From: an uncultured Candidatus Saccharibacteria bacterium
GTDB lineage: Bacteria > Patescibacteriota > Minisyncoccia > Phycocordibacterales > Phycocordibacteraceae
Assembly (NCBI GenBank): GCA_964634305.1
Contig: CAZWLE010000002.1
Coordinates: forward strand, 921 to 64,920
Length of the DNA: 64,000 nt
Direction: 5' to 3'
Positions 4,439 through 56,983 of the stretch are shown here, piece by piece; position 1 is the first letter of the stretch, and every line of letters starts with the position of its first letter. The position numbers and the translations under genes are program-made. The notes below the pieces were generated by a model. It was not told where the DNA came from and did not search any database. It was given only the letters and a program-made list of their open reading frames with translations.

Positions 4439-4445
4439 AACACGA

Positions 4446-4469
4446 CGGCCGGCTCGTGAGAGCCGGCCG
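4446..4469. terminator. GC-rich hairpin between the convergent murC and the minus-strand ORF; possible bidirectional terminator.
   Basis: CGGCCGGCTC gtga GAGCCGGCCG is a perfect 10-bp stem. A T-rich tract is present only on the minus side. Confidence 0.45.
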
Positions 4470-4479
4470 CGGAACGTAT

Positions 4480-7109: not shown

Positions 7110-8777
7110 ATGGATAACCCGGAACGGGTAACGTACTTTGCGGCAACGGATACACGCGGCAAGCGTGTGCCGTTTGGTATTAAGGAAAAAGACCGTGCGC
7201 GTCACATGTACGTTATTGGAAAGACGGGTATGGGTAAATCGACCATGCTCGAGAACATGGCAATTCAAGACATCCAAAACGGAGAAGGCATTTCGTTCAT
7301 TGACCCGCACGGTTCTACCGCTGAAAAACTGCTTGAGTACGTTCCGGAACACCGCATCAATGATGTTGTGTATTTCGCCCCGTTTGATCTCGACCATCCG
7401 ATTGCCTTCAACGTGATGGAGGATGTGGGGTACGACAAACGTCACCTCGTCGTGTCGGGCCTCATGGCGACCTTCAAGAAGATTTGGGTGGACGCGTGGA
7501 GCGCTCGTATGGAGTACATCCTCTCGAACACCCTCCTTGCGCTGCTGGAGTACCCTGATGCAACCCTTCTCGGGGTGAACCGTATGTATGTCGACAAGGG
7601 CTATCGAAAGAAAGTCGTCGATAACGTTAAAGACCCTGTCGTGAAGGACTTCTGGGTAAAGGAGTTCAACACGTATACCGACCGTTACACCCAAGAGGCA
7701 ACGCCGGCTATTCAGAACAAGATTGGTCAGTTCACGAGTAATCCTTTGATTCGTAACATCATCGGCCAGCCGAAGTCGTCGTTTGATATTCGTGATCTCA
7801 TGGATCAGAAGAAGATTCTCATCATGAATCTTTCGAAGGGACTGGTAGGAGAAACGAACATGAAGCTTCTCGGCTCGATGCTCACGACGCGCATTTTCCT
7901 TGGCGCTATGAGTCGTGCGGATGTAGCGGCTCGCGACATGTCACGATTGCCTAATAGTTTCTTTTTTGTGGACGAGTTCCAGAACTTCGCGAACGATACG
8001 TTTGCAGAAATTCTCTCTGAGGCGCGTAAGTACAAACTTAACCTTACGATTGCGCACCAGTACATCGAGCAAATGGAGGAAGAGGTACAGGCAGCCGTCT
8101 TTGGTAACGTCGGTACAACCGTGACGTTCCGTGTTGGTCCGTTTGATGCAGAAACACTGGAGACCGTGTTTTCACCTGAGTTCGAACAAGAGGACCTGGT
8201 GAATCTTGGCTTTGCGCAGATTTACCTGACGCTGATGATTGATGGCATTGGGTCACGACCGTTCTCTGCCCTCACTCTGCCGCCTATTGAGCCGCCGCGA
8301 CGTACGTTTAAGAAGGAGGTGGTGGAAGCGTCCAGAGCGCGCTTTGCGACGCCGCGTGAGAAAATAGAAACCGCTATCTACGATGAGCTCTCACTCATTA
8401 TGGATGCGACGGTTGAAGCAGCGCCACCACCACGACCAAAATGGGACGGACAGAAAAAGAAGAAACCGCAGCAGCAAGGTGGCGGCGGGGGAGGTGGTGA
8501 GAAAAAGAAACCCGCACCACCAGCTCCTTCTGCGCCGTCGCAGGATTTGCGTGCTGCTATTGAGGCGCTCACGAAGGACACAAAGCAGCAAGAGGCGCAC
8601 AAAGAAGCGGAGAAGCGTGAAGAGCTCAAAGAGACGATTGCACACGTCATTCCTCCTCCTGCTCCGCGTCCTACGCCGCCTCCTGCGCCCCAGCAGTCCG
8701 TCCCTCCTCCTCAGCCGAAGCGTGCAGGATTTGAGGTGCCTGAGGAAGAATTGAAGGCTATTTTTGAGGAGAAATAG
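7110..8777 (+). CDS. TraD/VirD4/TrwB-like (type IV coupling protein/DUF87) P-loop ATPase with a disordered Pro/Gly/Lys-rich C-terminal tail.
   Basis: Walker A VIGKTGMGKST, then FIDPHG (TrwB-like) and a FFVDEF Walker-B-like motif. The last ~120 aa are low complexity (KKKKPQQQGGGGGGGEKKKPAPPAP...PPPAPRPTPPPAP). Confidence 0.55.
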   Translation: MDNPERVTYFAATDTRGKRVPFGIKEKDRARHMYVIGKTGMGKSTMLENMAIQDIQNGEGISFIDPHGSTAEKLLEYVPEHRINDVVYFAPFDLDHPIAFNVMEDVGYDKRHLVVSGLMATFKKIWVDAWSARMEYILSNTLLALLEYPDATLLGVNRMYVDKGYRKKVVDNVKDPVVKDFWVKEFNTYTDRYTQEATPAIQNKIGQFTSNPLIRNIIGQPKSSFDIRDLMDQKKILIMNLSKGLVGETNMKLLGSMLTTRIFLGAMSRADVAARDMSRLPNSFFFVDEFQNFANDTFAEILSEARKYKLNLTIAHQYIEQMEEEVQAAVFGNVGTTVTFRVGPFDAETLETVFSPEFEQEDLVNLGFAQIYLTLMIDGIGSRPFSALTLPPIEPPRRTFKKEVVEASRARFATPREKIETAIYDELSLIMDATVEAAPPPRPKWDGQKKKKPQQQGGGGGGGEKKKPAPPAPSAPSQDLRAAIEALTKDTKQQEAHKEAEKREELKETIAHVIPPPAPRPTPPPAPQQSVPPPQPKRAGFEVPEEELKAIFEEK

Positions 8778-40489: not shown

Positions 40490-41320
40490 ATGGATGAGCT
40501 TACTATCGATGGGAAAATCTATGTATCGTCTAAACGGGCCGCTGCCATAACCGGGTATGCGAAGGACTACATAGGGCAGCTGTGCCGTGAGGGGCGTGTT
40601 GAAGCGAAATTAGTGGGACGCAGCTGGTACGTATACGAGCCGTCTCTCAAGAAGCATCGCTTTAATGATGAGGAAGAGCAGCCTGAGGTGCCAAAAGCAG
40701 AGACAGCGTGGGGAAGTCTTCCAACAGAAGAGCCAATACCAGCTCCTTCTTCTCCTGAACTATCCGAAAACACTAGTATTCAGGCCGTTTGGGATGCACC
40801 AACCTACGCAGCAGAGGAAGTAGAACCGCTGCCTGAACTTGAGCCAGTCGTTGAAGAACCAGCTCAAGAACCACTTACTGATATGCAGTCAGCGTGGCAG
40901 GAATGGTTTGCAAACCGCCCTGAAGAGGCGCCAGTAACCGAATTAGTGGCAGAAGAGGTTGTAGAAGCTCCTAGAGCTCCTGAAGAGTCAAAAGAAGAAC
41001 CTAAAGAGGCCCCTGTAGCAGAAGCAGTACCGTTGAAGGTCATTGTGAGCGATATACAGCCTGTACGGGAGGAACGTGTAGTACCTGCAGCCCCTGCTGT
41101 GCGAGTAGCGCCAGTAGCATCACCTGTACGTATCCTGCAGAGAAAGACGGTCAAAAAGGGAAATAATCGCCTTATGGAAGCAGCGCTTATCTTGGTTATG
41201 GTGGTGAGTGCATCAATAGCTCTCATTTCAACAGGCGCTATAGAGATGCTTCATGTTGGTGGTACCTCAAGCGTGCCTCCTATCCAATATCTTGAAGGTT
41301 CGATACTGATAGAAAGATAG
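40490..41320 (+). CDS. Membrane protein with an N-terminal excisionase/MerR-like HTH (HTH_17-like), an acidic Pro/Glu-rich linker and a C-proximal TM anchor. Its N-terminus is paralogous to that of the giant protein.
   Basis: SSKRAAAITGYAKDYIGQLCREGRVEAKLVGRSWYVYEPSL aligns with ISTRDASALSGYHSDYLARLCREEKIVGSRIGRSWVLDRASL of the 41864 gene. The TM is AALILVMVVSASIALISTGAI (nt ~41180–41245). Confidence 0.7.
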   Translation: MDELTIDGKIYVSSKRAAAITGYAKDYIGQLCREGRVEAKLVGRSWYVYEPSLKKHRFNDEEEQPEVPKAETAWGSLPTEEPIPAPSSPELSENTSIQAVWDAPTYAAEEVEPLPELEPVVEEPAQEPLTDMQSAWQEWFANRPEEAPVTELVAEEVVEAPRAPEESKEEPKEAPVAEAVPLKVIVSDIQPVREERVVPAAPAVRVAPVASPVRILQRKTVKKGNNRLMEAALILVMVVSASIALISTGAIEMLHVGGTSSVPPIQYLEGSILIER

Positions 41321-41863: not shown

Positions 41864-44800
41864 ATGTCATTGCTCCTTGATTCAAATCTAATTTCTACTC
41901 GAGACGCATCGGCGCTTTCTGGGTATCACTCCGACTATCTCGCGCGCCTCTGCCGCGAAGAAAAAATTGTTGGAAGTCGCATTGGTCGTTCATGGGTACT
42001 CGACCGTGCATCGCTTGATGCGTTTATACGCGACCAAGAGCTCGCAAAGAAAGAACATGCCGTTGCTCTTACTCGTCAGCGTGAGCAGGAATACCGTGAA
42101 GCACAGAAAGTACACGAGACTATCGCCGTTGTAGAGGCAGAACAGGCTTCAGAGACGCCTGTAGAGGCTCCTGAAGTAGTTTCTGTGCCTGTTACAACAC
42201 CCGTATCAGCACCAGAACGCTCGTACGTGCCGATTCCAAGTCCATACGCGGAGCTTCACCCGATTCGTAACAGTGCCGTTGCTGCTCTGATTGCAGTTGT
42301 TTCTGTTGGTAGTGGCTTGGTTGCTGCTGAGGCTCGCATTGTTGAGCATGTAGCACGCATTTCAGTAGAAAACGTAGCAATTGCTAGCGATATCGGATAC
42401 GAAGCGCTCGCATCTGCAGCTACAGCGACGCTCGCGTTTGAGACAGAACTTGGCCGTTCCATCATTAGTGGTGTCGATACCCTCGCTACTCTCACGCGCG
42501 CCGAGCATCAAAGCGACACGGCTGCCTCAATTCGCTTTGCCTATGACGCAGGGGCACTGCTCCATGCACCAACGCTCCAGACCATTCCGGAGGCACTGTA
42601 TGGAGCACAACTCTCAATCGGTACTACGCTTATCGGAACATCTGATGCAATACTCGCAGCGCATCACACCGGTACGAATGCATGGGTTGAGGGTAGCGAC
42701 ATTGTGCCGCGTCGCGTTATTGCTGCTATCTACGGCGTTGGTGATGAGTTCCAGCGTGTTGCACTTCTTGCACCGCACGCTGCTGCAACGACTGCAGATA
42801 CTGCTATTGTTGCGCTCGCCGGCGAGACGCGCACCGTTGCAAACAACGCCGTTGATGCGATTTCATCGTCGCGTGATGTATTCGCACGAGCATTCAACAC
42901 ACGATTGGTTGAGCCGCGCGCAACACTTGCAGCGGTACCGCATGAAGACACGTTGGGCCCTGCACGTGCGCTTGCACTCTTTACGTACGAAACACTCAAC
43001 AGCTTCTTTGACGCGACGAGTCGTACGCTCGCAATGCTTTTCGCACCGCTTGCGCCAAACGTTGCCTACGCACCAGAACTTACTGTGCCTGGTACAGGTA
43101 CCACTTCTGTCTCTCGCCAGGTCGTTGAAGTCAGCCGAGTAGTAAATGAAATAACGAACGTTACGTACTCAAGCCCGATTACCTACGTGTACGGTGGCGT
43201 CACTATGGAGTACGTTCGTGCGGCTATAGAGAACCTCCGCGATGACGTTGCTGATGCTGATTATGGCTCAGGGGATGGCGGCCTCGCAGACATCACTGGC
43301 TCCTCTATAGAAGAGCTTTCTGACGTGGGTACCATGGCTAAGACCTGGGGCGATTTACTCTTCTGGGATGGTACTGAGTGGTCGAACCTCGCAACATCAA
43401 GCCTTGGTATTACGGGTAGTGGTATTCCAGGTGGCGCACCAGGCTACGTGCAATACAACGTTGGTGGAAACTTTGGAGGTGACGCCGCTTTTACGTTTGA
43501 TGCTGCTGCAGACCGCCTCTCCTTTACGTACGGTTCGACCACCGCATTTTCAACGGGATTCCTGAATGCAACGAGCGCAGTCATCGATACACTCTCATCA
43601 ACGGTTGCAACGGTCACCAGTCTTATTGCAACGAATGCTACTACTACTAACGCAACGTCGACGAATCTCACAGCGCTTAACTCGTTCGCACTTGGTGCTG
43701 ACCGCATCACTGATCTCACCGGCTCAGGTCTAACAGTAACGGCAGGTGCGCTCGCTGTTGATGATGTAACGCCGGCGATGCTTCAAGCGGCAGACTTTGG
43801 TGATTTCACTTGTAACGGTACGTCATGTTCATTTGATGCGGACACAGTGTCTGACAGTGAGCTCGATTACGGCACGGTCACACTAACTGACTTCACCAAC
43901 GATGCAGGGTTTATCACTGGTATTGGTGCGTTCTCGATTGAAGACCTATCGGATGTTGCCGCGATGACAGAGAGCTATGGCAACCTTCTCTCCTGGAACG
44001 GGAGCGCGTGGACGAACATTGCGACCTCGACGTTGAACATTGCCCTCAGCAACACGACAGGCATTCTTCCTATTAGTAGAGGAGGCACCGGTACTTCTAC
44101 CGTTCCGACCTACGGACAGCTACTCGTAGGTGACGGCCTCGGGGGCTATGCACTACTTGCGACCTCTTCTCTGGGTATTTCCGGCAGCGGCGGTACGCCA
44201 GGTGGGCTTACAGGTCAGGTGCAGTTTAATAGCGCAGGTACGTTCGCAGGAGACACTGGCTTTACCTACGACGCAGCGGCTGACCGTTTGACTGTAACCT
44301 ATGCGTCTTCGACAGCCTTCTCCTCTATATATGCCTCGTCAACGAACGTATTTGCGGGGAATCTGACCGTTGGCTCACTCACGGGCATCTTGAAAGCTAC
44401 GGGCGGGGTAGTCTCTGCAGCGACTGCCGGTACTGACTATGAGAACCCCCTTACCTTTGCCTATCCTCTGACGCGCTCAGTGAATACTGTTTCTCTCGCG
44501 TTTGGTACCACGACGACTAACACCTGGGTACATCAAATCTTCTCGTCCCTCGTTGCAACAAATGCGTCTTCAACCAACGCCACGACGAGCCAGCTGGCCG
44601 TCACGTCACTGCCGTCACAGCTCCTACGCACGGATGGTACGGGACGCCTTGCAGGGACGACTATAGGTACGGGCCTTACCTTCGACGGTACGACGCTCTC
44701 AGCAACAGGTGGCGGCGGGACAGGTAACGTTTCAACCTCAAGCAGTGAGACCGCAGGACAGGTACCGTACTGGACGACCACGGCAGGCTCTCCAGCGCGT

Positions 44801-47800
44801 CTTGGTAGTGTTGCGACCACAACCTTTGCCGTTTCTGGTCCGTTTAACGTCTCTGGAAGCCTTGGCTCGCTCATTGGCGGTACGAACGCGACGATTTCAT
44901 ACTACGGCCTTGCTACTACCTCGAATATTAGTCAGGGTCAGGTGCTCTACGGCACGAGTGCTTCAGGGGTCGCCTCAGTTGCTACTTCAACACCAGCACT
45001 TTCTACGGCCTTTAGTTACTCTGGCACGCTTGGTTCGTTTGTAGGTGGAGCCTCAGGTACGCTCTCGCTTGCAAATAATGGTGTAGCGCTCACCAATCTT
45101 GCGCAGATTGCAGCGAACACTGTTCTCGCTAATCCAACGGGAGCAATCGGTAACGTGCAAGCGATTGCGACCTCAACCTTCTTTGGAACAGGCACCGGTG
45201 GCTACGTGCTTGCTTGGAACAACGGCGCACCAACGTGGGTAGGTACCTCATCTATACAAAACGGCGTCGCAGCAATAGGTCCTGCAGGACAGACACAGAC
45301 GGGTACGGTACTTATTGCTACGAGCACGAGCGGTACTGACATTACGGTAACGGCTACTGGTGGCACTATTACCTTTAATATCCCATCAGCATCCGCGTCT
45401 GCACGCGGTCTTCTTACCAGTACCGACTGGAACACCTTCAACAACAAGATTAGCTCTACCTCGCTCTCTGGTGGTACGGGTATTAGCTACAACAGTGGCT
45501 CAGGTGTCATCACCAACACCGGTGTTACTTCGCTCTCTGGTACGACCAATCAAATAACGGCATCTGCGGCTACCGGTGCGGTTACGGTCTCTCTTCCTGG
45601 TCTCGTCGCATTCCCGAACGCCTACACCGCAAGCTACGGCACTACCACCTACGCCTCTTCAACGGCGCTCTCCTCCGTATACGCATCGTCAACAAACGCA
45701 TCCTTTGGAAATCTTTCAGTTGGCACACTGACTGGTCCGCTCCAGGCTGTCAACGGCGTTGTCTCAGCATCGTCGACACTCTCTGTTGTATATGGCGGCA
45801 CTGGCTGGAACGCAGTGCAGTCTGGTGCGCTTTTGTACGGTAATGGCGCTGGTCGTTTAGCGACGACAACGCAAGGTACCGGTGGTCAGGTGCTTGCGTG
45901 GTTGAACGGTATCCCTACGTGGACTGCGACGTCCTCCATACAAAACGGTGTGTCTTCAGTGCAGCAGTCCTTTGGCGCTGCACAAACCGGTGCCATCACA
46001 CTCGCCACAAGCTCAGACACAAACGTGCTGCTCTCCATTACTAACTCTGGTGGCACCTTTACCTTTACTCCGTCGTGGACAGGTACGCTTGCGTACGGTC
46101 GTGGCGGTACAGGCACAACGACTGCGCCCGCAGGTCAGTTGTTGTATGGCGGTACGACAGCCTATCAGTCGGTGGCAACATCAACGGTTTCTGCAGGAAC
46201 GGGTATTGGGTTTACGGGTACGCCAGGGTATCTCGTGGGAGGAACTAATCTCACGATTACCAACAACGGTGTCACAAGTATAAGTGGCACCACTAACCAG
46301 ATAACGGCATCTGCTGGTACTGGTGCAGTAACGTTGTCGCTTCCAGGTCTCGTCGCATTCCCGAACGCCTACACCGCAAGCTACGGCACTACCACCTACG
46401 CCTCTTCAACGGCGCTTAGTGCGGCGTACGCTTCATCTACCAATCTCTTCGTCGGCAATTTCACTCTCGGTACGCTTAATGGTCCATTGCAAGCAAACAA
46501 CGGTGTCGTATCAGCGACTACCACTATTGGTGCGATTTATGGTGGTACTGGTCAGAGTAGCTACGCAGCAGGCGATCTTCTCTATGCAGATTCCGCGACG
46601 TCACTTGCACGTCTGCCAGTTTCAACCAACGGCTTGGTCTTGAAGCTAGTGGGTGGGCTACCAAGTTGGCAGCCAGACCTTACGACGGGTGGCGGTGGTG
46701 GTGCGGGAGCGTGGAGCACGACGACTGATAGTCTCGCAATTTACCCTTCAGATACCTCTGACGTGGTCATTATAGGAGCCTCGGCTACCTCCACCACAGG
46801 CAGCATCTTTGAAGTCGCAGGTCGTTCCTATTTCTCAAACACACTCAGTATCGGTACCACCTCTGGTTCATCGCTATTCCGTCTTGCGGTGCAGGGTAAT
46901 GGCCTTTTCTCCGGAAATCTTTCAACGGCGAATCTTACTGCGACGGGTACAGTATCAACGGCAAATCTTACTGCAACGGCGGCAACCACCACGTACCTAG
47001 GCATCAACAACGAAACCTTCACCGACCTCACTGGCACGGGTCTTCAGAACGTTGGTGGTGCGCTTACGATTAACGCTACCGGCGATTGGACAGGAACATT
47101 TGACGGACAGGAAGGCACCTATTATCTCAACCGCGCAAATCACACAGGCACGCAGCTTGCATCGACGATTTCTGACTTCGATGGTGCGGTCAATACCTAC
47201 ATCGCTGGTTCCACCACGATTCCAAAGACCTATAGCGCGAACACCTTCACCGGCGCTCAGGTATTTAGCAGCGGCGTTACTATAGGTACCCTTAATGGTC
47301 CTTTGCAGGCAAATAATGGTGTCGTTTCAGCTACGACGTCTGTTGGCGTCCTCTACGGAGGCACTGGTCTTACTACTGCACCAAGTTACGGGCAGATTCT
47401 CGTGGGCAATAGTAGTGGTGGGTATACCCTGACCGCTACCTCTTCACTTGGTTTGGTTACGAGCGCAGTTACCGCTATTGGTCCGGCAGGGCAGGCACAA
47501 ACGGGACCAACGGTAACGTTCGCGACGAGCTCAACGGCGTACAACGGTCTTACGGCGTCAACGACGATTACAGCAACAGGAAACACTATTACATTTGCTA
47601 ATACACTCGCTGGTCTCCTTGGTGTAGCAGGTGGCGGTACTGGTTCAACAACGTTGGGCGGTATTCTCACCGGTAACGGCACCGGTCAGGTAACGAGCGC
47701 GACGGTGTCTGCGCCCCTTAGCTTCAGTGGCAATACGCTCTCTATTTCGCAGGCCAATGGCTCGACCAACGGCTATCTTTCTTCAACCGACTGGAACACC

Positions 47801-50800
47801 TTCAACAACAAGATTAGCTCTACCTCACTTTCTGGTGCGTCAGTGATTAGCTACACCTCTGGTACTGGTGTCATTACAACGACCGGTGGCACGTTTGGCG
47901 CTGGTAACTACGTGTTCCCGTCAGCGCTCACGGTCCAGGGTGCCTCAAGCTTCCAGAACGCATCAACGACGAACTTGTCGGCTAACACGCTTGCGGTGGG
48001 CGGCACAGGTACTACAAGCGTGAGTGCAACGGGTGCACTCACGACACCATCACTCACCATTGGTTCTCTTACCGGTATTCTTAAAGCAACCGCTGGCCTC
48101 GTCTCGGTGGCGACCGGTGGCACTGACTACGAAAATCCGCTCACTTTCGTATATCCGCTCACACGTGCGGTTAACAGCATCTCGCTTGCGTTTGGTACGA
48201 CGACTGCAAACACATGGGGCGCTCAGCAAACGTTCAGTGGATTGTTTGCCACAAATGCATCAACGACGAACGCGACGACCACCTCGCTTGGCATCAACAA
48301 CGAAACCTTCACCGACCTCACTGGCACGGGTCTTCAGAACGTTGGTGGTGCGCTTACGATTAACGCTACCGGCGATTGGACAGGAACATTTGACGGACAG
48401 GAAGGCACCTATTATCTCAACCGCGCAAATCACACAGGCACGCAACTTGCGTCTACTATCTCGAACTTCGACGCCACGGTTAATGCGTACATCCATGGCT
48501 CAACGACAATCCCTAAGACATATACCGCAAATACATTCACTGCAGCGCAGGTATTTAGTGGTGGGGTAACCATTGGTACGCTCAACGGTCCTCTGCAAGC
48601 AAACAATGGAGTAGTGAGCGCGACTACGTCTATCGGTGTACTTTATGGCGGCACAGGCCTTACGACGGCGCCTACATACGGTCAGATTCTCGTGGGTAAT
48701 AGCTCTGGCGGCTACACGCTCACTGCGACATCCTCACTTGGTTTGGTAACGAGCGCAGTTACCGCTATTGGTCCGGCAGGGCAGACACAAACGGGACCAA
48801 CCATAACGCTTGCGACGAGCTCTACTGCATTCAATGGTCTGACAGCGTCTACGACCATAACTGGTACCGGGAATGTCATTACATTCTCAAACACCCTTGC
48901 CGGTGTGCTTGGTGTAGCAGGTGGCGGTACTGGTTCAACAACGTTGGGCGGTATTCTCACCGGTAACGGCACCGGTCAGGTAACGAGCGCGACGGTGTCT
49001 GCGCCCCTTAGCTTCAGTGGCAATACGCTCTCTATTTCGCAGGCCAACGGCTCGACCAACGGCTACCTCAGCAGTACTGATTGGAATACCTTTAATAATA
49101 AGATTTCTTCAACGTCGCTCTCTGGCGGTACCGGTATTAGCTACAACAGTGGCTCAGGCGTCATCACCAACACCGGTGTTACTTCGCTCTCTGGTACGAC
49201 TAATCAAATAACGGCATCTGCGGCTACGGGGGCAGTCACGCTCTCTCTCCCGGGTCTCGTTGCGTTCCCGAACGCATACACAGCAACATACGGCACCACT
49301 ACGTATGCCTCTTCGACGGCACTCTCAACTGTCTACGCCTCATCAACAAACGCATTCTTCGGCAATCTCTCTGTCGGTGCACTTACGGGTCCACTCCAAG
49401 CTCTCAACGGGACCGTAAGCGCATCGTCGACGCTCTCGGTTGCCTACGGGGGCACTGGCTGGAATAGCATTCAAGCGAATGCCGTACTCTACGGCAACGG
49501 CGCCGGACGCCTCGCAACGACATCTGCAGGCACGAACGGTCAGGTTCTTGCGCTAGTCAACGGCGTACCAACGTGGGTAGCAACGTCGTCGATAAACAAC
49601 GGTGTCTCCTCGATACGGCAAAGTTTCGGTGCTGCACAAACTGGTGCCATCACACTCGCCACAAGCTCAGATACAAACGTCTTGCTTTCCATTACTAACT
49701 CTGGTGGCACCTTCACGTTCGCACCAAGCTGGACGGGTCAGCTTGCGGTGGCTCGTGGTGGTACGGGCGCTGGGTCGTTTACCTCTGGTCAGCTGGTCTA
49801 TGGTGCAGGTACCGGAGCTCTACAAAGCGTAGCGACCTCAACCTTTGCGGTCTCTGGTCCATTTACTACCTCAGGTACGCTCGGTTCACTGGTCGGTGGT
49901 ACAAATGCGACGGTCACGTACTACGGTCTTGCAACTACTTCTGCTATTTCTCAAGGTCAGGTGCTCTACGCAACTGGTGCGGCAGGGGTTGCGTCCGTCG
50001 CTACGTCAACACCAACGCTCTCCGCAGCCTTTAGCTACTCCGGTACGCTCGGCAGCTTTGTAGGTGGAGTCAATGGCACGCTCTCACTCGCTACCAATGG
50101 TGTTGCGCTTAATAATCTTGCGCAAATTGCAGCAAACACGGTACTTGCAAATCCAACGGGGGCAACAGGGAACGTGCAGGCCATTGCCACCTCTACCTTC
50201 TTTGGTACGGGTACGGGTGGTCAGGTGCTTACGTGGAATAACGGGGTTCCTCAGTGGGTAGCAACGACGACGTATGCAAACGGTACCGGTATCTCTACAT
50301 CGTTTGCAAACGGACAACTTACGATAACGAACACTGGTGTTACGTCATTGTCTGGTACGACTAATCAAATAACAGCGTCAGCGGGCACGGGTGCCGTCAC
50401 ACTCTCACTGCCATCCTTGGTGGCATTCCCGAACGCATATACCGCAACATATGGCACCACTACGTATGCCTCGTCGACTGCGCTCTCGTCGGTGTACGCA
50501 TCGTCAACGAACGTCTTTGCAGGAAACCTCAGTATCGGCGCTCTTACCGGCATCCTCAAGGCAACGGCAGGCGTAGTGTCTACTGCGGTTGCGGGGACAG
50601 ACTATGTAGCTGGTGGAGCAGGTGCCGCTACGACCACGCTCTCCTTCAGTGGTCCATTCACTACGTCTGCAACGCCAGTAGTGTTTGGTTCCTCACCAAT
50701 TACGACAACGTACTATGGCCTTGCAACGACCTCAGCTATTTCTCAAGGTCAGGTGCTGTACGGCACCTCTGCCTCAGGTGTTGCTTCAGTTGCAACCTCT

Positions 50801-53800
50801 TCTGTGTCTGCGGGAACGGGGATTGGTTTTACTGGCACGCCAGGGGCGCTGGTTGGTGGAACGGCACTCACCATAACGAACACCGGAGTTACCTCGCTCT
50901 CTGGCACTACTAATCAGATTACTGCTTCTGCAGGTACAGGCGCTGTAACCCTTTCTATCCCGTCTCTCTTCTCCATACAGCAGGCATCAACGACGATGTT
51001 GTCATCAAATGGTCCTTTCTTTGTCGGTACCACCTCAACGACAACCATCTGGGGTAATGCAACATCGACGTTCTCAGGCGGCATCAATTTGACTAATGGT
51101 GGATGCTACGCCATTGGCGGAACGTGTATTGGTGCACTGGGTGCATCCGGTACCGTTAATAACGGTACAACAGGTCAGATTCCGTACTACGCTGCAAACG
51201 GAAATATTCTTACTGCCACCTCAAGTATCTTTATTGCAGCTAGTAGTGACGTAGGTATTGGAACGAACGCGCCTACTAACTACGGTGCAGGATATAGAAC
51301 ACTTGCGATAGATGGTGCAGCGTCGGGTGTGCTTGATGTGATGAGTAACGGTACGCTTTCCGGAACCCTCTATAACGATGGTTCGACGTTCCGTGTAGGA
51401 AATAGGAACCCAAGTGCATTTGAGCTTATTACTGACAATACACCGCGCCTTACCATAAGCGGCGGTGGTGATGTCACCATAAACGGTGGTTCGCTCACCA
51501 TCGGCACCCTCTCAGGCCTTTTGAAGGCAACGAACGGTCTTGTCTCCGCTGCCACCGCAGGCACCGACTACATCGCAGGGGGCGCAGGCGCTGCCACCTC
51601 TTCTGTCTCCTGTGCGGGTACCGCGTCCTGTACCAGCTTTGTCGCGTTCTCTGCAACCCCTATTACGATTACGGGCACCGGTCTTTCTGCATACGATGCG
51701 TGGACGCATCCCGCAGCAGGGCAGTCAGCAACGACGTCACTTATTCTTCTTGACGGCAACGCCTCAACCACACAGCTCTCTGCAACGCGTGCGTATTTTG
51801 GTGGTACGGCCACTTCAACGTTCACCGCTACCGGCGCACTTGGTATTGCCACTACCTCTCCTCAGGGATTACTGGAAATAGGCAATAACGATACGGGCAC
51901 CATTGGCGCATACATCACCAACGCGAATACGTCTATTGGTACGCCCCGAGCCTTACTCTCTATTCGTAATAACTACGCTGCTACCGGTCTCAACCTCTAT
52001 GCTCTAGGTTCTAGTCACTTTAATAACGGACGATTCCGCCAAGATGGCGCGCTCATAGAAGCTGGTTCTAGCCTCTCTGGTGGTCTCTCAATAGCAACAG
52101 AGACGACTGCGCCGATACGTTTCTATACTAATGGTGATAACGAACGTCTCCGTATTACAGAAACAGGACTCGTTGGTATTGGTACCACCTCCCCTCAATT
52201 CCTTCTTCAGCTAGCGGCTGCGACCAGCCCTCAACTCACGCTCTCAGACGGCTCCTTGACCGCTGCACCGTTCAATTTCCGTGCAATCAATAATACCCTC
52301 TATCTCTCAACGTCTTCTCCGACGACGTTCGCTACTACCTCGACTGCATTTGCCTCATTCAACAATACAACTGGCTCTACCAGTCTCCTCAAACTTGATG
52401 TTACGGGCAGTGCTACCTCATCTTTCGCTGGAGGTATTAATCTTACGACTGGCTGCTACGCCATCAACGGCACTTGTTTGCCAACCACTGCTGGTCTTGC
52501 GTCATACGACGCCTGGACGCATCCCGCAGCAGGGCAGTCAGCGACCACGTCTTTGATGTTGTTCAACGGTAATGCATCAACGACTCAGCTCTCTGCAACG
52601 CGTGCGTATTTTGGTGGTACGGCAACGACCACTATCACTGCCGCAGGCTTTGTGGGTGTCGGCTCCTCAACTCCGTGGGCACAGCTGTCAATCAATCCTA
52701 CGAGTGCAAATGGTTCCGCGCCGTCGTTTGTAATTGGTTCGTCTACGGGTACTCGATTTGTAGTCAGAAACGACGGTGCGGTCGGTATTGGTACTGCTGC
52801 GCCAACTGACGCACTGTATATCCAAGACCCTAATGGAAGAGGAATGACCATTAATCAGGGTTCTATCAGTCTCTTAAATCCATCAGGAAACGCCGGACGC
52901 CTTTCCTTTAATGGCGGTAGTGACACGAGCCGATTCTGGTTTAGTCCGAGCCACGAACAAAACTACATCTCATTTGACGATGTAGGTGATGGATATTCAC
53001 ACGTACTTGCAATTGAGGGAGGAGCAGGAACAGATACAGGACTGCTGTACTTCGACTCTAGTGAAAATCTGGGAGTTGCGACCAGCTCCCCATACGCGCG
53101 TCTCTCGGTCTGGGGCAATTCGACGGGGAAAATCTTTGAGGCAGTCACTGCTGCTTCCTCAAGCGCTCTGTCTGTCTCTGCAACTGGGTTTGGTACGACG
53201 ACCGTGTCAGGTCTTACGATTTCGGGTTCGGCAACCTCTACGTCGAACGTTGGTTTCAACATCACCACTGGGTGTTATGCCATAAACGGGACGTGTATCT
53301 CTGGGGGCGGAAGTGGCCTCTCTTCATACGACGCCTGGACTCACGCGTCTATCTATCAGTCAGCAACGACATCGATGATGGGCTTTGGTACGACGACGCC
53401 ACGATGGGCACTCCAAGTTGCGTCGTCAACCGCGCCGCAACTCACGCTTTCTGACGCTACTGGTGGTCATTGGTCATTCCGTTCTATTAATGGCAACCTC
53501 TACATCGCGACCTCAAGTGCTACGACCTTCGCGACTACGTCAACTACGGCACTGACGATTAACACGGTAGGCAATATAGGTATTGGTAGTAGTTCTCCAT
53601 GGGGTCAGCTTTCTATCAATGCGAACGGTGGCGTCACTGGTTCTAATCCTCTCTTTGCTATCGGTTCGTCGACATCAAATCTCCTTGTAGTTGATTACGC
53701 GGGTCGCATGGGACTTGGAACCACGTCGCCGTATGCGAAGCTCTCGGTCGTTGGTGAGACCGTATCTACCTTCTTTACAGCAACGTCGACGAGCGCCACT

Positions 53801-56800
53801 TCAACGTTTGCGGGCGGGTTGAATGTTGGCTCAGGAGCACTCACGCATGACTTTACGTCAGGCGTGACGTCGATAGGCAATCTTGCTATAGGCGCAATGA
53901 CGTTTGATACCAACTCAGGTGTTATTTCCTGGGTTGATATGCCTGTTACTTCTACTGCTTCTGCCGGCACGGTCCAAAGCTATAGTGCGCAGTTGGATGG
54001 TACTTCGGTGCTTACCGTCTATGCGGTTTCAGATGGCGCTGGAGGTATCGCCTCGACCTCTGTGGGTATTTCTTCATCAACACCGTGGGGTATGTTCTCG
54101 GTTGAGCAGACAAACGGTACGACCTCACCTGTCTTTGTTGTAGGTGATCAGGGAACCTCTACGCCGCATCTGTATATCGGTGCAAACGGAAGGGTAGGTG
54201 TTGGTACGACCTCGCCATGGGCCCGTACGTCACTCAATGCTCCTGCAGGGGAAGCAGCATTTGCTATCGGTTCTTCGACACGCAACCTCTTCTATGTAAC
54301 ATCGCTTGGCACCACCACCATTGGCCGTGGCCTCGACATTATTGGCGCCGTTGCTACTTCCTCTTCCAATGTGGGTTGGAATATCACCACTGGATGTTAT
54401 GCCGTTAATAACACGTGTCTTTCAGGTGGCCTCTCCTCATACGACGCATGGACCCACGCGTCTATCTATCAGTCAGCAACGACGTCGATGATGGGCTTTG
54501 GCACCACGACCCCACGATGGGCACTCCAAGTTGCGTCATCCACTGCGCCGCAGCTCGCACTCTCTGATGGTTCGCTTACTTCAAATCACTGGACTTTCCG
54601 CAACGCAGGTGGCGGTCTCTTTATCGGTACCTCCTCACCGCTTACCTTCGCCACAACCAGCATCTCCGCACTCACCATTAACGCAAGCGGCAACCTTGGT
54701 ATCGGTACCACCTCACCGTCCTCACGACTTACCGTTGCAGGCTCCGGTTTCTTTGAAGGCTCCAACAACTATATAAACTTCGCAACGACAACAGGTGCGA
54801 ACGGCTACGGCTTCCGCGATAACGGCGGTGTTATGGAGTTTAAGAACATGGGCGGCACGTGGCAGGGCGTCACAACGGCAACAACAGGGCCGAGTTTCTC
54901 AGTACATAAAAACAGCTCTGATCAGACGGTCACTGCTGGTATCGATACGCTCCTCACGTGGGCTACTGAGGAATATGATACGAACAACAATTTCAATCTC
55001 GGTACTGGACGGTTCCAGCCGACGGTCCCTGGTAAATACGTCATTTACTTGCAGGTTCGTACTACTAACGGTAGTTCAGCGGTTGCATCGATATATAAGA
55101 ACGGCAGCTTGTATAAACTGGGAATTGTCAGCAGTGCTCTTATTGCAAATGTGACTGCTGTTGTCGACATGAATGGTAGTACCGATTATGTTGACGCATA
55201 CGTAACAAACACAGGTGGCACGACTATCAGCGGTAACATCACGCAAACATATTTTAGCGGCATTATGGTTGCTCCACTGAACAACAACGTCGCCACCAAC
55301 CTTAACCTCCAATACGATGGCACGCAGACTACGCAAGTGGACCAGACCAAGTTCTTCGGTCTCGGTACGTCGACGCCATGGGGTCAGTTTGCTATAAATC
55401 CGCTCGCATCCAACGGTAATGCTCCGTCGTTCGTTATTGGTTCTTCGACTGCTACCAACTTCATTGTTACAAATGCAGGAAATGTCGGTATCGGAACCAC
55501 AAGCCCTGCAAGTAAGCTCCACATTTTTGCGAGCACTGGAGCAGCACAGCTTGACTTTGATGCATCGGCAAGTCAATTCCGTGGCTTCACCGTTAAAACT
55601 GGAAACTCTACACGTTGGGCGGTGGGCGGTGGTACAAGTGTTGCAGAAAGTGGAAGTAACGTTGGGTCGAACCTGTTCATAGATCGTTACTCCGACTCAG
55701 GTTCCTATCTTGGCACTGCGATGACCTTTATTCGCAGTAGCGGTTATGTAGGTATCGGTACTACGACCCCCGCGTGGAATTTAAACATAGCCGACGCTAC
55801 GAGATCGCAGCTTACGCTTTCTGACGGATCTGTAACTCAGAACCCATGGAGCTTCCGCAGTATTAACGGCAACCTATATATTGCAACCTCGTCACCCTCT
55901 ACGTTCGCAACGTCGACCGTTGCTGCGCTCACTATAAATAGCAACGGTACGGTTCTTGTAGGTAATGGTCTTGGCAAACTCACCATTGGTACCTTGGACC
56001 CGGTCTACACCGTCAACGGTACGGCGTACGCAACGTACATGGCAGGCATGATTGGTGTAAAGGAAGAAACAACCGGTAATGCCGTTATTGACACACCCCT
56101 TACCGCTGAAGATGGCAGTACGGGATACGTCGCCGTACTCGACTTTGATGAATTAGAGCCAGGCAGTGACTTGTGGCTCTTCTCGCAAACGACTCATATT
56201 CGCAAGAACATTGATAAGCTCGTCGTGCTTCTCACTGCAGAAAATGGTGGGAAGGTTTGGTATGAGATAGACAAGGCAGAGCGTAAGGTCTACCTCTTAG
56301 CCGATAGACCAACGCGTGTCTCGTATCGTATGACGGCGCCGCGGTTTGATTCTGAATCATGGACAAACTTCAACCATGACGGCGTCATCGGCTTTACTCC
56401 ACCGTCTGATGATTTAACGGTGTACTTCACTGACGAACATGCGTTGTCGTTTGGTAATGCAAACCTGGTCTCCGGCACGTCAACGCTCGCAACGTTGCTT
56501 GAGGAATATGACGAAGAAGGTGAAGAAGAACTCAAGCCATGGACCGCGGCACTCGTTGAGGCAAGTGACGGGTTGAAGACCGCTATGGATGACCTGTCGA
56601 ATCAGGTGATTGAAGTCATGCACGGCGCTCAGTACTTTGCTGACGGTATCTTTAAGCGCATCTTTGCGCAGGAAGTATATACAGACAAAATCTGTGTGAC
56701 CGACGCAGAGGGAGAGACGTGTCTGACTCGTGCGCAGCTTAACCAGCTCTTATCAGGCGCAGCGGCCTCTGGCGGTGGCAATACTAGTGGTGGTTCTGGT

Positions 56801-56983
56801 GATACTTCTGGCGGAGACACAGGCGGCGGAGATACCGGTGGTGGCGAAGGCGATACTGGCGGAGGTGATACGGGTGGTGACACCGGCGGCGGAGATACCG
56901 GCGGAGGCGACTCTGGCGGAGATTCCGGAGGTGGCGGAAGTGAGGGTGGGGACTCGGGCGGCGGAGAGGGTGGCGCTCCTTAA
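41864..56983 (+). CDS. Giant (5,039 aa) repeat-rich cell-surface protein with an N-terminal HTH_17-like domain and a single TM anchor. The ~4,850-aa predicted extracytoplasmic region is rich in Ser/Thr/Gly/Ala/Asn and built from beta-solenoid-like modules. It ends in a conserved C-terminal domain, a Cys pair, and an acidic Gly/Asp/Thr tail.
   Basis: A single uninterrupted 15.1-kb ORF. The N-terminus is paralogous to the 40490 protein. The TM is AVAALIAVVSVGSGLVAA (aa ~135–155). Repeated modules include LTGILKATxGVVSAATAGTDY, LYGGTGxTTAP, SYDAWTHPAAGQSATTSL and GCYAINGTC. The tail is GGDTGGGDTGGGEGDTGGG... Confidence 0.85.
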   Translation: MSLLLDSNLISTRDASALSGYHSDYLARLCREEKIVGSRIGRSWVLDRASLDAFIRDQELAKKEHAVALTRQREQEYREAQKVHETIAVVEAEQASETPVEAPEVVSVPVTTPVSAPERSYVPIPSPYAELHPIRNSAVAALIAVVSVGSGLVAAEARIVEHVARISVENVAIASDIGYEALASAATATLAFETELGRSIISGVDTLATLTRAEHQSDTAASIRFAYDAGALLHAPTLQTIPEALYGAQLSIGTTLIGTSDAILAAHHTGTNAWVEGSDIVPRRVIAAIYGVGDEFQRVALLAPHAAATTADTAIVALAGETRTVANNAVDAISSSRDVFARAFNTRLVEPRATLAAVPHEDTLGPARALALFTYETLNSFFDATSRTLAMLFAPLAPNVAYAPELTVPGTGTTSVSRQVVEVSRVVNEITNVTYSSPITYVYGGVTMEYVRAAIENLRDDVADADYGSGDGGLADITGSSIEELSDVGTMAKTWGDLLFWDGTEWSNLATSSLGITGSGIPGGAPGYVQYNVGGNFGGDAAFTFDAAADRLSFTYGSTTAFSTGFLNATSAVIDTLSSTVATVTSLIATNATTTNATSTNLTALNSFALGADRITDLTGSGLTVTAGALAVDDVTPAMLQAADFGDFTCNGTSCSFDADTVSDSELDYGTVTLTDFTNDAGFITGIGAFSIEDLSDVAAMTESYGNLLSWNGSAWTNIATSTLNIALSNTTGILPISRGGTGTSTVPTYGQLLVGDGLGGYALLATSSLGISGSGGTPGGLTGQVQFNSAGTFAGDTGFTYDAAADRLTVTYASSTAFSSIYASSTNVFAGNLTVGSLTGILKATGGVVSAATAGTDYENPLTFAYPLTRSVNTVSLAFGTTTTNTWVHQIFSSLVATNASSTNATTSQLAVTSLPSQLLRTDGTGRLAGTTIGTGLTFDGTTLSATGGGGTGNVSTSSSETAGQVPYWTTTAGSPARLGSVATTTFAVSGPFNVSGSLGSLIGGTNATISYYGLATTSNISQGQVLYGTSASGVASVATSTPALSTAFSYSGTLGSFVGGASGTLSLANNGVALTNLAQIAANTVLANPTGAIGNVQAIATSTFFGTGTGGYVLAWNNGAPTWVGTSSIQNGVAAIGPAGQTQTGTVLIATSTSGTDITVTATGGTITFNIPSASASARGLLTSTDWNTFNNKISSTSLSGGTGISYNSGSGVITNTGVTSLSGTTNQITASAATGAVTVSLPGLVAFPNAYTASYGTTTYASSTALSSVYASSTNASFGNLSVGTLTGPLQAVNGVVSASSTLSVVYGGTGWNAVQSGALLYGNGAGRLATTTQGTGGQVLAWLNGIPTWTATSSIQNGVSSVQQSFGAAQTGAITLATSSDTNVLLSITNSGGTFTFTPSWTGTLAYGRGGTGTTTAPAGQLLYGGTTAYQSVATSTVSAGTGIGFTGTPGYLVGGTNLTITNNGVTSISGTTNQITASAGTGAVTLSLPGLVAFPNAYTASYGTTTYASSTALSAAYASSTNLFVGNFTLGTLNGPLQANNGVVSATTTIGAIYGGTGQSSYAAGDLLYADSATSLARLPVSTNGLVLKLVGGLPSWQPDLTTGGGGGAGAWSTTTDSLAIYPSDTSDVVIIGASATSTTGSIFEVAGRSYFSNTLSIGTTSGSSLFRLAVQGNGLFSGNLSTANLTATGTVSTANLTATAATTTYLGINNETFTDLTGTGLQNVGGALTINATGDWTGTFDGQEGTYYLNRANHTGTQLASTISDFDGAVNTYIAGSTTIPKTYSANTFTGAQVFSSGVTIGTLNGPLQANNGVVSATTSVGVLYGGTGLTTAPSYGQILVGNSSGGYTLTATSSLGLVTSAVTAIGPAGQAQTGPTVTFATSSTAYNGLTASTTITATGNTITFANTLAGLLGVAGGGTGSTTLGGILTGNGTGQVTSATVSAPLSFSGNTLSISQANGSTNGYLSSTDWNTFNNKISSTSLSGASVISYTSGTGVITTTGGTFGAGNYVFPSALTVQGASSFQNASTTNLSANTLAVGGTGTTSVSATGALTTPSLTIGSLTGILKATAGLVSVATGGTDYENPLTFVYPLTRAVNSISLAFGTTTANTWGAQQTFSGLFATNASTTNATTTSLGINNETFTDLTGTGLQNVGGALTINATGDWTGTFDGQEGTYYLNRANHTGTQLASTISNFDATVNAYIHGSTTIPKTYTANTFTAAQVFSGGVTIGTLNGPLQANNGVVSATTSIGVLYGGTGLTTAPTYGQILVGNSSGGYTLTATSSLGLVTSAVTAIGPAGQTQTGPTITLATSSTAFNGLTASTTITGTGNVITFSNTLAGVLGVAGGGTGSTTLGGILTGNGTGQVTSATVSAPLSFSGNTLSISQANGSTNGYLSSTDWNTFNNKISSTSLSGGTGISYNSGSGVITNTGVTSLSGTTNQITASAATGAVTLSLPGLVAFPNAYTATYGTTTYASSTALSTVYASSTNAFFGNLSVGALTGPLQALNGTVSASSTLSVAYGGTGWNSIQANAVLYGNGAGRLATTSAGTNGQVLALVNGVPTWVATSSINNGVSSIRQSFGAAQTGAITLATSSDTNVLLSITNSGGTFTFAPSWTGQLAVARGGTGAGSFTSGQLVYGAGTGALQSVATSTFAVSGPFTTSGTLGSLVGGTNATVTYYGLATTSAISQGQVLYATGAAGVASVATSTPTLSAAFSYSGTLGSFVGGVNGTLSLATNGVALNNLAQIAANTVLANPTGATGNVQAIATSTFFGTGTGGQVLTWNNGVPQWVATTTYANGTGISTSFANGQLTITNTGVTSLSGTTNQITASAGTGAVTLSLPSLVAFPNAYTATYGTTTYASSTALSSVYASSTNVFAGNLSIGALTGILKATAGVVSTAVAGTDYVAGGAGAATTTLSFSGPFTTSATPVVFGSSPITTTYYGLATTSAISQGQVLYGTSASGVASVATSSVSAGTGIGFTGTPGALVGGTALTITNTGVTSLSGTTNQITASAGTGAVTLSIPSLFSIQQASTTMLSSNGPFFVGTTSTTTIWGNATSTFSGGINLTNGGCYAIGGTCIGALGASGTVNNGTTGQIPYYAANGNILTATSSIFIAASSDVGIGTNAPTNYGAGYRTLAIDGAASGVLDVMSNGTLSGTLYNDGSTFRVGNRNPSAFELITDNTPRLTISGGGDVTINGGSLTIGTLSGLLKATNGLVSAATAGTDYIAGGAGAATSSVSCAGTASCTSFVAFSATPITITGTGLSAYDAWTHPAAGQSATTSLILLDGNASTTQLSATRAYFGGTATSTFTATGALGIATTSPQGLLEIGNNDTGTIGAYITNANTSIGTPRALLSIRNNYAATGLNLYALGSSHFNNGRFRQDGALIEAGSSLSGGLSIATETTAPIRFYTNGDNERLRITETGLVGIGTTSPQFLLQLAAATSPQLTLSDGSLTAAPFNFRAINNTLYLSTSSPTTFATTSTAFASFNNTTGSTSLLKLDVTGSATSSFAGGINLTTGCYAINGTCLPTTAGLASYDAWTHPAAGQSATTSLMLFNGNASTTQLSATRAYFGGTATTTITAAGFVGVGSSTPWAQLSINPTSANGSAPSFVIGSSTGTRFVVRNDGAVGIGTAAPTDALYIQDPNGRGMTINQGSISLLNPSGNAGRLSFNGGSDTSRFWFSPSHEQNYISFDDVGDGYSHVLAIEGGAGTDTGLLYFDSSENLGVATSSPYARLSVWGNSTGKIFEAVTAASSSALSVSATGFGTTTVSGLTISGSATSTSNVGFNITTGCYAINGTCISGGGSGLSSYDAWTHASIYQSATTSMMGFGTTTPRWALQVASSTAPQLTLSDATGGHWSFRSINGNLYIATSSATTFATTSTTALTINTVGNIGIGSSSPWGQLSINANGGVTGSNPLFAIGSSTSNLLVVDYAGRMGLGTTSPYAKLSVVGETVSTFFTATSTSATSTFAGGLNVGSGALTHDFTSGVTSIGNLAIGAMTFDTNSGVISWVDMPVTSTASAGTVQSYSAQLDGTSVLTVYAVSDGAGGIASTSVGISSSTPWGMFSVEQTNGTTSPVFVVGDQGTSTPHLYIGANGRVGVGTTSPWARTSLNAPAGEAAFAIGSSTRNLFYVTSLGTTTIGRGLDIIGAVATSSSNVGWNITTGCYAVNNTCLSGGLSSYDAWTHASIYQSATTSMMGFGTTTPRWALQVASSTAPQLALSDGSLTSNHWTFRNAGGGLFIGTSSPLTFATTSISALTINASGNLGIGTTSPSSRLTVAGSGFFEGSNNYINFATTTGANGYGFRDNGGVMEFKNMGGTWQGVTTATTGPSFSVHKNSSDQTVTAGIDTLLTWATEEYDTNNNFNLGTGRFQPTVPGKYVIYLQVRTTNGSSAVASIYKNGSLYKLGIVSSALIANVTAVVDMNGSTDYVDAYVTNTGGTTISGNITQTYFSGIMVAPLNNNVATNLNLQYDGTQTTQVDQTKFFGLGTSTPWGQFAINPLASNGNAPSFVIGSSTATNFIVTNAGNVGIGTTSPASKLHIFASTGAAQLDFDASASQFRGFTVKTGNSTRWAVGGGTSVAESGSNVGSNLFIDRYSDSGSYLGTAMTFIRSSGYVGIGTTTPAWNLNIADATRSQLTLSDGSVTQNPWSFRSINGNLYIATSSPSTFATSTVAALTINSNGTVLVGNGLGKLTIGTLDPVYTVNGTAYATYMAGMIGVKEETTGNAVIDTPLTAEDGSTGYVAVLDFDELEPGSDLWLFSQTTHIRKNIDKLVVLLTAENGGKVWYEIDKAERKVYLLADRPTRVSYRMTAPRFDSESWTNFNHDGVIGFTPPSDDLTVYFTDEHALSFGNANLVSGTSTLATLLEEYDEEGEEELKPWTAALVEASDGLKTAMDDLSNQVIEVMHGAQYFADGIFKRIFAQEVYTDKICVTDAEGETCLTRAQLNQLLSGAAASGGGNTSGGSGDTSGGDTGGGDTGGGEGDTGGGDTGGDTGGGDTGGGDSGGDSGGGGSEGGDSGGGEGGAP
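45481..45669 (+). repeat. Intragenic repeat patches: 45481–45572 matches 49135–49226 with two mismatches (each at a codon third position, eye-aligned), and 45601–45669 matches 46348–46416 perfectly (69 bp).
   Basis: Direct alignment by eye of the quoted DNA stretches. Confidence 0.7.
47001..47755 (+). repeat. Copy A of a ~1.29-kb-period intragenic direct repeat; mosaic of perfectly identical and synonymously diverged patches relative to copy B.
   Basis: 47001–47146 is identical to 48291–48436 (146 bp). 47619–47755 is nearly identical to 48909–49045. The intervening segments encode the same peptide with many synonymous differences. Confidence 0.75.
48291..49045 (+). repeat. Copy B of the ~1.29-kb-period intragenic direct repeat.
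   Basis: See copy A; the offset between copies is 1,290 nt. Confidence 0.75.
53330..53460 (+). repeat. Near-identical ~130-bp patch repeated at 54437–54567 (period ~1.1 kb) inside the SYDAWTH/GCYAxNxTC module series.
   Basis: The stretch tacgacgc(c/a)tggac(t/c)cacgcgtctatctatcagtcagcaacgac(a/g)tcgatgatgggctttgg... is present in both. Confidence 0.65.

Follow-up and report, generated by a model that had tools for sequence, protein, structure and literature searches.

A giant gene lies in the second half of the DNA stretch analysed here, a window of 64,000 nucleotides (positions 921 to 64,920 of contig CAZWLE010000002.1, assembly GCA_964634305.1) from an uncultured Candidatus Saccharibacteria bacterium of the Patescibacteria, or candidate phyla radiation (CPR). 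The gene encodes 5039 residues comprising an N-terminal HTH_17-like helix-turn-helix (HTH) domain, one transmembrane (TM) helix, a modular fibre rich in Thr, Ser, Gly and Ala, a C1q-like knob and a Gly/Asp-rich C-terminal tail. The fibre part spans ~4800 residues, and its modules recur in varied order. Within these modules, tracts of identical DNA alternate with tracts that encode nearly the same protein in codons no more alike than random synonymous choice would give, a mosaic that very probably reflects recurrent short-tract intragenic gene conversion (concerted evolution) in an HTH-TM-fibre protein carrying a C1q-like knob. The features on which the argument is built are the following, with dS denoting synonymous divergence.

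41864..56983, + strand: giant open reading frame (ORF), 5039 aa in a single frame, characterized from the ORF list and by profile and structure searches
46979..47905, + strand: module copy A (927 bp), whose homologue at offset 1290 is copy B
48269..49195, + strand: module copy B, 927 bp
47000..47154, + strand: patch 1 in copy A, 155 bp, encoding GINNETFTDLTGTGLQNVGGALTINATGDWTGTFDGQEGTYYLNRANHTGT, dS 0
48290..48444, + strand: patch 1 in copy B, identical to 47000-47154 with 0 mismatches
47618..47757, + strand: patch 2 in copy A, 140 bp, dS 0
48908..49047, + strand: patch 2 in copy B, identical to 47618-47757 with 0 mismatches
47405..47518, + strand: older, partly decayed A/B conversion tract, dS 0.56
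45401..46123, + strand: block C, a homologue of 49055-49777 (offset 3654) with a mosaic of sub-blocks, some near-identical and others diverged
45422..45462, + strand: tract in which C equals A (47786-47826), 41 bp exact, recognized from three-way informative sites
45599..45669, + strand: 71-bp exact patch identical to 46346-46416 at offset 747, with diverged flanks, dS 0.05

Over 927 bp, copies A and B share 81.4% of their nucleotides and 279 of 310 encoded residues (~90%), with identities of 0.92, 0.93 and 0.595 at codon positions 1, 2 and 3, respectively. The original prediction had described two 1.29-kb repeat units with near-identical peptides; the peptides are near-identical, but 1290 bp is the spacing of the two copies and their homology is confined to 927 bp. 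The ~360 bp past copy A (47906-48268) have no counterpart after copy B, and the continuation of copy B from 49055 is homologous to block C (45401-46123) rather than to the sequence following copy A, which makes copy B a chimera. The identical stretches that had been placed at this offset were recovered at slightly greater length, 155 bp instead of 146 bp for patch 1 and 140 bp instead of ~137 bp for patch 2. Both are in frame at offset 1290, and each begins at a first codon position.

The third-position divergence reported for the flanks was borne out by the low position-3 identity and by the codons themselves. In the three diverged A/B segments, 47 of the 136 codon pairs specifying the same amino acid are identical, against 46.8 expected for random synonymous draws from the giant gene's own codon usage. 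By the NG86 method, dS is undefined (saturated) and nonsynonymous divergence (dN) is 0.08-0.16 in these segments, compared with a dS of 0 in the patches. The runs of matching third positions extend over 51 and 46 codons, lengths unreached in 200,000 shuffles (maximum 32; analytic P ~4e-10). Conversion is thus supported, since the identical tracts are far longer than the surrounding divergence allows. Selection against identity in the flanks was also considered and rejected, because their codon identity equals the random expectation and their divergence does not go beyond saturation. Between the two patches, the tract at 47405-47518 contains 22 identical codons where 11.4 are expected, including an exact 36-bp core (47459-47494, identical to 48749-48784). 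The newest tracts show 0 differences in 295 bp, from which we estimate a dS below about 0.04 over ~72 silent sites.

Block C brings a third copy into the mosaic. The C/B sub-blocks have dS values of 0.38-0.56, and the stretches between them 1.46. Further identical patches had been reported to link other parts of the gene, and these were found again as the 71-bp exact patch, a 95-bp stretch with 2 mismatches (45479-45573 versus 49133-49227) and the 41-bp exact tract at 45422-45462. Within the last of these, B differs at 11 synonymous sites, and directly downstream C matches B. A three-way alignment of the DWNTFNNK sub-module took in C (45401), A (47765) and B (49055); in it, A equals B over the first ~12 nt, C equals A in 45422-45462 (11 sites, with 0 sites of C=B), and C then equals B. 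With conservative boundaries, the informative sites of 45417-45462 divide into 12 C=A and 4 C=B and those downstream into 2 and 17 (Fisher P 1.4e-4). No single tree fits these sites, indicating that segments were exchanged among different module pairs. Ordered by dS, the tracts run from 0 (patches 1 and 2) through 0.05 (the 71-bp patch), 0.2 (C/A) and 0.38-0.56 (C/B, and A/B at 47405-47518) to saturation, a continuum of ages that points to a recurrent process and not to one event. In the C-terminal half of the gene, exact patches of 29-38 bp are set in blocks of 80-90% identity (51773-51810, identical to 52586-52623 at offset 813; 53342-53370, identical to 54455-54483 at offset 1113), so that the mosaic extends beyond 45.4-50 kb.

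A different history would begin with a recent duplication of the 927 bp, after which the diverged segments were overwritten by transformation with DNA from distant relatives and the patches survived as remnants. Natural competence has been reported for Patescibacteria (PMC12455944), the synonymous distance of the diverged segments equals that of copies from different genomes, and gene architecture is strongly different among related genomes, all of which would be in keeping with such imports. At least 3-4 separate imports into about 900 bp would nevertheless be required, each recombining with ~70%-identical DNA, and neither the C=A and C=B tracts, which lie 2.4-3.7 kb apart, nor the graded tract ages would be explained. 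Moreover, no donor-like sequence closer than 84% nucleotide identity was found in either the genome or the metagenome collection. We consider this history unlikely.

To place the gene in a wider context, 154 related loci (1.83 Mb) were collected by module scans of these genome and metagenome collections, with the patch-1 domain as the query by which the loci were ascertained. All 154 derive from metagenome-assembled genomes of Patescibacteria or from environmental metagenomes, and groundwater is one source of such relatives. The loci contain 119 exact direct repeats of at least 60 bp, spread over 54 loci, and in 112 of these both copies are inside a single long open frame (median 2390 codons), offset from each other by a multiple of three. 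The repeats are 60-710 bp long, mostly have diverged or non-homologous flanks, and fall on many sub-module types; the idea that the patch-1 domain is a special recombination node is accordingly unsupported. At matched amino acid identity, the synonymous codon identity of patch-1 domains is 0.52-0.77 within a locus versus 0.41-0.46 between loci. Pairs of near-identical patch-1-domain copies are present in each of four independent genomes (the window, L003, L009 and L077), and between genomes these domains never reach 90% nucleotide identity. As judged from these comparisons, such within-genome homogenisation is the signature of concerted evolution. The intragenic gene conversion put forward in the original prediction is thereby supported from four sides, namely the run-length test, the three-way switches, the graded dS and the within-genome homogenisation.

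The recurrence of a homogenised tract over the same DWTGTFDGQEG…NHTGTQ domain in four genomes could also be taken to mean that the patches are selected DNA or RNA elements, for instance an internal promoter, a structured RNA or a site for protein binding. Against such a nucleotide-level constraint, codons for the same amino acid in the two patch regions match those of relatives at 0.41 and 0.29, about the random level, in 334 tblastn alignments to the related loci. The folding z-scores of the patches are +0.4 to +0.9, and neither an Rfam match nor promoter-like sites were found in them. In addition, the patches of relatives hit many different sub-modules, and the loci had been ascertained with this very domain. 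Constraint at the nucleotide level is therefore highly improbable as the source of the patches.

The related loci bear equally on the question of whether the patches are an artefact of assembly or polishing, produced by repeat collapse, mis-mapped reads or wrong threading of a de Bruijn graph. The giant gene is highly repetitive, the 140-155-bp patches are about as long as short reads, which leaves their phasing uncertain, and suspicious exact 55-bp repeats occur in some related SPAdes contigs. These last repeats, found in the 'NODE' contigs L015, L021, L025, L034, L064, L068 and L071, have flank identities at or below random, down to 0.08-0.10, and look like k=55 assembly-graph joins rather than biology, so the module order in those contigs is untrustworthy. 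For the window, however, an artefact is very improbable: assemblers do not create identity between sequences with a difference at roughly every third base, the patches keep the frame and start at codon boundaries within an intact 5039-aa ORF, and similar patches of 60-710 bp are present in 52 independent assemblies. Among these are L016 and L045, whose contig naming points to long-read assembly.

The layout of the gene differs among relatives. In the closest genome (contig CAYWQN010000005.1), where SecA and GatB are syntenic, two fibre-family genes, one of 2304 aa and the other of more than 3489 aa, take the place of the one 5039-aa gene. Among distant relatives, the genes are between 2304 and over 5700 codons long, and a locus holds 1 to 6 patch-1 domains. 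Architecture therefore changes fast between lineages.

The following sequence of events would account for these observations. In this account the giant gene is made of old paralogous fibre modules with saturated synonymous sites, and purifying selection holds the module proteins about 88-90% identical. Stretches of ~40-155 bp would have been copied repeatedly and non-reciprocally from module to module within the same gene, the newest events leaving tracts without differences and older events leaving partly decayed ones, and the pairs A-B, C-A, C-B and C-D would have exchanged different segments to give the patchwork. The likely engine would be RecA-type homologous recombination between sister or intramolecular copies, an alternative being RecA-independent template switching between nearby repeats. 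Since recombination needs identity, converted islands would remain good substrates and be re-converted. The islands may thus be self-sustaining, with exchange beginning in an existing island and re-homogenising it, and the sequence between islands would have escaped and drifted to saturation. A crossover between the in-frame 155-bp or 140-bp repeats is predicted to delete or duplicate a 430-aa module, and gain or loss of modules through the identical patches is plausible. We infer this enzymology, the self-sustaining islands and the loss or gain of the 430-aa module. Conversion between modules of a single expressed ORF mainly homogenises them rather than diversifying them. Patescibacteria are reported to retain homologous-recombination genes along with competence (PMC12455944).

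Several points weigh against gene conversion of this kind. The A/B flanks are ~70% identical and have no exact run longer than 17 bp outside the tracts. RecA-dependent exchange started de novo between sequences that are ~70% identical should be very inefficient. With flanks that are such poor substrates for RecA, the engine may differ or may need pre-existing islands, and self-sustaining islands would be the most economical way round the difficulty. The status of recA and of mismatch repair lies beyond the 64 kb visible, and the genome and metagenome collections yielded no strain-level relative, none being closer than ~83% amino acid identity or 84% nucleotide identity over 150 bp. Taken with the evidence above, the mosaic is a real, statistically solid instance of a well-known process and not a new mechanism. 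No paper describing this fibre gene family or its mosaicism was found in the literature searched, and the mosaic is a well-supported example of an evolutionary process already known, here in a CPR fibre family that is uncharacterised.

The mosaic might alternatively be the footprint of a dedicated system for antigenic or phase variation, working by cassette conversion, a diversity-generating retroelement (DGR) or an invertase shufflon. In favour are the probable role of the protein as a surface fibre and the resemblance of short-tract mosaics to those of pilE/pilS- or vlsE-type systems. But no exact match of 25 bp or more links the giant gene to the rest of the 64-kb window, and hence no silent donor cassettes are seen there; the region from 40 to 60 kb is free of inverted repeats; the window ORFs that were scanned include neither a reverse transcriptase nor a recombinase; and mismatches, where the repeats have any, are third-position differences involving every kind of base, not the adenine-specific ones of a DGR. 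A programmed system is thus very improbable here. The only simple-repeat tract of the giant gene is a weak tandem array of a 15-bp unit at 56842-56921 (5.5 copies, 73% matches), which encodes the Gly/Asp/Thr-rich tail (GGDTGGG…). The suggestion that the protein is phase- or antigenically variable consequently finds no support in the cassettes, inverted repeats and simple repeats surveyed. In pilE/pilS, vlsE, msp2 and MgpB/MgPar, silent donor cassettes located outside the expression site generate diversity. The giant gene resembles these systems in that short non-reciprocal tracts yield a mosaic coding sequence for a surface protein, and departs from them in having donor and recipient in the same expressed ORF, with net homogenisation and no cassettes in the window.

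The remaining features of the giant protein and its small upstream partner are the following.

41891..42037, + strand: HTH_17-like domain, aa 10-58, identified with Pfam PF12728 and a hidden Markov model (HMM) of the N-terminus
42269..42343, + strand: single predicted TM helix, aa ~136-160, from a Kyte-Doolittle scan
54881..55288, + strand: C1q/TNF-like jelly-roll knob, aa ~4340-4475, inside the fibre, from AlphaFold2 (AF2) and Foldseek
40490..41320, + strand: small protein with an HTH and a C-terminal TM segment, its N-terminus paralogous to that of the giant protein

The giant protein scores 26.6 bits against PF12728, for which the cut-off is 27, and 37 bits are reached by the homologous N-termini of L006 and L009. 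Four N-termini were combined into an HMM, which gave 115 matches within the related loci. The HTH_17-like domain would be cytoplasmic; no signal peptide was found in the giant protein, and the TM helix would anchor it with the N-terminus inside and the C-terminus outside. Modelling of the knob gave a confident fold (AF2 pLDDT 82.5), predicted with confidence to be a ten-strand jelly roll matching gC1q. In Foldseek searches against PDB, the top matches of the knob are gC1q domains (E 7e-9, target TM-score 0.77-0.83), and other structural matches are a BclA-like endospore appendage (ENA) tip and a phage spike knob; the Pfam C1q profile scores 22.1 bits on it, below the cut-off of 23.7. The knob is placed ~560 residues ahead of the C-terminus and not at the tip, and its homologues are mostly stand-alone short proteins (150-330 aa) from metagenomes.

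PHROG tail-fibre profiles gave weak matches in the C-terminal half of the protein, and tblastn against phages gave matches limited to a 28-40-aa motif in Rhodococcus phages. Fibre motifs of the GGTG/NHTGTQ type are common to the giant protein and short tail-fibre-like proteins. Pfam, NCBIfam and PDB sequence searches returned no family for the repeat modules. The AF2 monomer model of one 430-aa unit is poor (pLDDT 53), as expected for a monomer of a probably trimeric fibre. No phage context was found around the giant gene. With its C1q/TNF-like knob, fibre motifs and weak PHROG tail-fibre matches, the protein resembles trimeric fibres with C1q-like heads and phage tail fibres (BclA/ENA tip fibrillum, phage spike knobs), and it differs from these trimeric or phage fibres in being chromosomal, 5039 aa long and headed by an HTH and a TM helix.

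The TM helix after the HTH, the C1q-like knob, the weak tail-fibre matches and the adjoining envelope-glycan cluster suggest that the protein is probably an N-terminally anchored, probably trimeric cell-surface fibre, in reasonable agreement with the surface location originally proposed. The gene neighbours SecA, Obg, GatB, MurB, an O-antigen-ligase-like protein and a long glycosyltransferase and sugar-modification cluster. This cluster of sugar-nucleotide enzymes (~8820-35134) lies directly upstream of the SecA-Obg-GatB-fibre block and contains many GT4 glycosyltransferases, C-methyltransferases, an acyltransferase, a flippase-like protein and a Wzy_C/O-antigen-ligase-like protein. Given its extreme Thr/Ser richness beside the sugar cluster, the fibre may be glycosylated. 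Farther upstream, the ORF at 7110-8777 carries TrwB/TraG/VirD4-type coupling-protein domains, which fits the type IV secretion systems described for Patescibacteria. Over 42001-56000, within the giant gene, GC skew is -0.02 to -0.07, and nearly all of the + strand genes around it have a positive skew; the negative skew probably stems from the Thr/Ala/Ser codon content and not from replication.

The small HTH-TM gene at 40490..41320 is the upstream partner of the giant gene and is conserved in related genomes. In the window pair, the one TM helix of the small partner is C-terminal, and that of the giant protein comes after the HTH. The same two-gene arrangement, a small HTH_17-like gene followed immediately and on the same strand by a giant fibre gene, is seen in dozens of independent Patescibacteria genomes, among them the loci L002, L003, L012-L014, L016, L019, L021, L022, L026, L030, L033, L035, L038 and L040, as well as L050, L056, L058-L060, L062, L064, L067, L074, L078, L079, L092, L094 and L105. 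In these, the small partner has ~210-380 aa with an N-terminal HTH_17-like domain, and the giant fibre gene, 1000 to over 5700 codons long, opens with an HTH of the same type. Downstream of the giant gene, a 783-aa protein (56987-59338) with an N-terminal TM or signal segment has modules in common with the giant protein (VDDVTP.QLAAADFGDFTCNGT.C; EDLSDVGAMTE.FG..L.WNG; QVQFN..G.FAGD.GFTYD). There is no exact DNA match of 25 bp or more between the two genes, which makes the 783-aa protein a diverged paralogue and not a recent conversion partner.

Module-to-module gene conversion is known from assembly-line polyketide synthase (PKS) genes, including the repeats with pronounced nucleotide skews termed GRINS (Nivina et al. 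2021, PMC8256042). As there, a giant multimodular bacterial gene has stretches copied into paralogous modules, regions of high identity stand amid divergence, and paralogues end up more alike than orthologues. By definition, GRINS exceed 500 bp in length and 80% in identity, and their absolute GC and TA skews, measured in 150-nt windows, average above 0.15 (PMC8256042). The 927 bp at 81.4% identity come narrowly within the length and identity bounds, a value that averages perfect and ~70%-identical segments. Membership in GRINS was rejected, as the absolute GC skew of 0.084 and the absolute TA skew of 0.09-0.11 in both copies are the same as the window background. The perfect tracts here, at 40-155 bp, belong, unlike GRINS, to a gene whose product is a structural fibre and not an enzyme, and whose host is a Patescibacterium.

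The periscope proteins SasG, Rib, Sgo_0707, CdrA and others (Whelan et al. 2021, PMC8201768) have a long, repetitive, surface-anchored stalk with intragenic repeat recombination, and DNA identity is the proposed substrate for the gain and loss of their repeats. With its single TM helix, C1q-like knob and fibre-like composition, the window protein may form a comparable surface stalk. Their repeats are tandem, highly identical throughout and variable in number among strains. The window gene, in contrast, has two copies at 81% nucleotide identity with silent-site saturation between the islands, its neighbouring modules are heterogeneous with shuffled sub-module types, and its anchor would be an N-terminal TM helix behind an HTH. 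A uniform tandem array of the periscope type was dismissed for the gene in view of these two copies and their identity. In Apilactobacillus kunkeei, the diversification of the 3000-8000-aa surface proteins Giant1-3 is attributed mostly to short intragenic recombination, with dS varying strongly (PMC12863079). The window gene shares with them the giant, probably extracellular product, the short intragenic recombination and the strong variation of dS along the gene. Exchange in Giant1-3 was deduced from population data to take place between strains and alleles, whereas here it takes place between modules of one gene copy in a single assembly, and the folds and lineage of Giant1-3 are unrelated to those of the window fibre.

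The perfect repeats of 140-155 bp in diverged modules are sites where short-read assemblies can be mis-phased, and a long-read check of module order is advisable for this reason. The family-wide repeat pattern is also a concrete target for read-level population analysis.

More broadly, the Patescibacteria genes for HTH-TM-giant fibres and their small HTH-TM partners might form a lineage-wide family of host-attachment fibres under continual intragenic shuffling, with the identity islands as in-frame recombination nodes, a wider reading that we put forward tentatively and hold to be doubtful. If it is true, cells of one population would differ in module number, module order and fibre length, and the family would be to CPR what periscope proteins and phage tail-fibre mosaicism are elsewhere, perhaps with a link to gene regulation by way of the cytoplasmic HTH. 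Genomes of the ultra-small CPR bacteria are about 1 Mb in size, ~15 kb is spent here on one gene, and relatives carry several such genes. If the fibres attach to host cells, frequent intragenic recombination would be a cheap route to altered length and binding modules.

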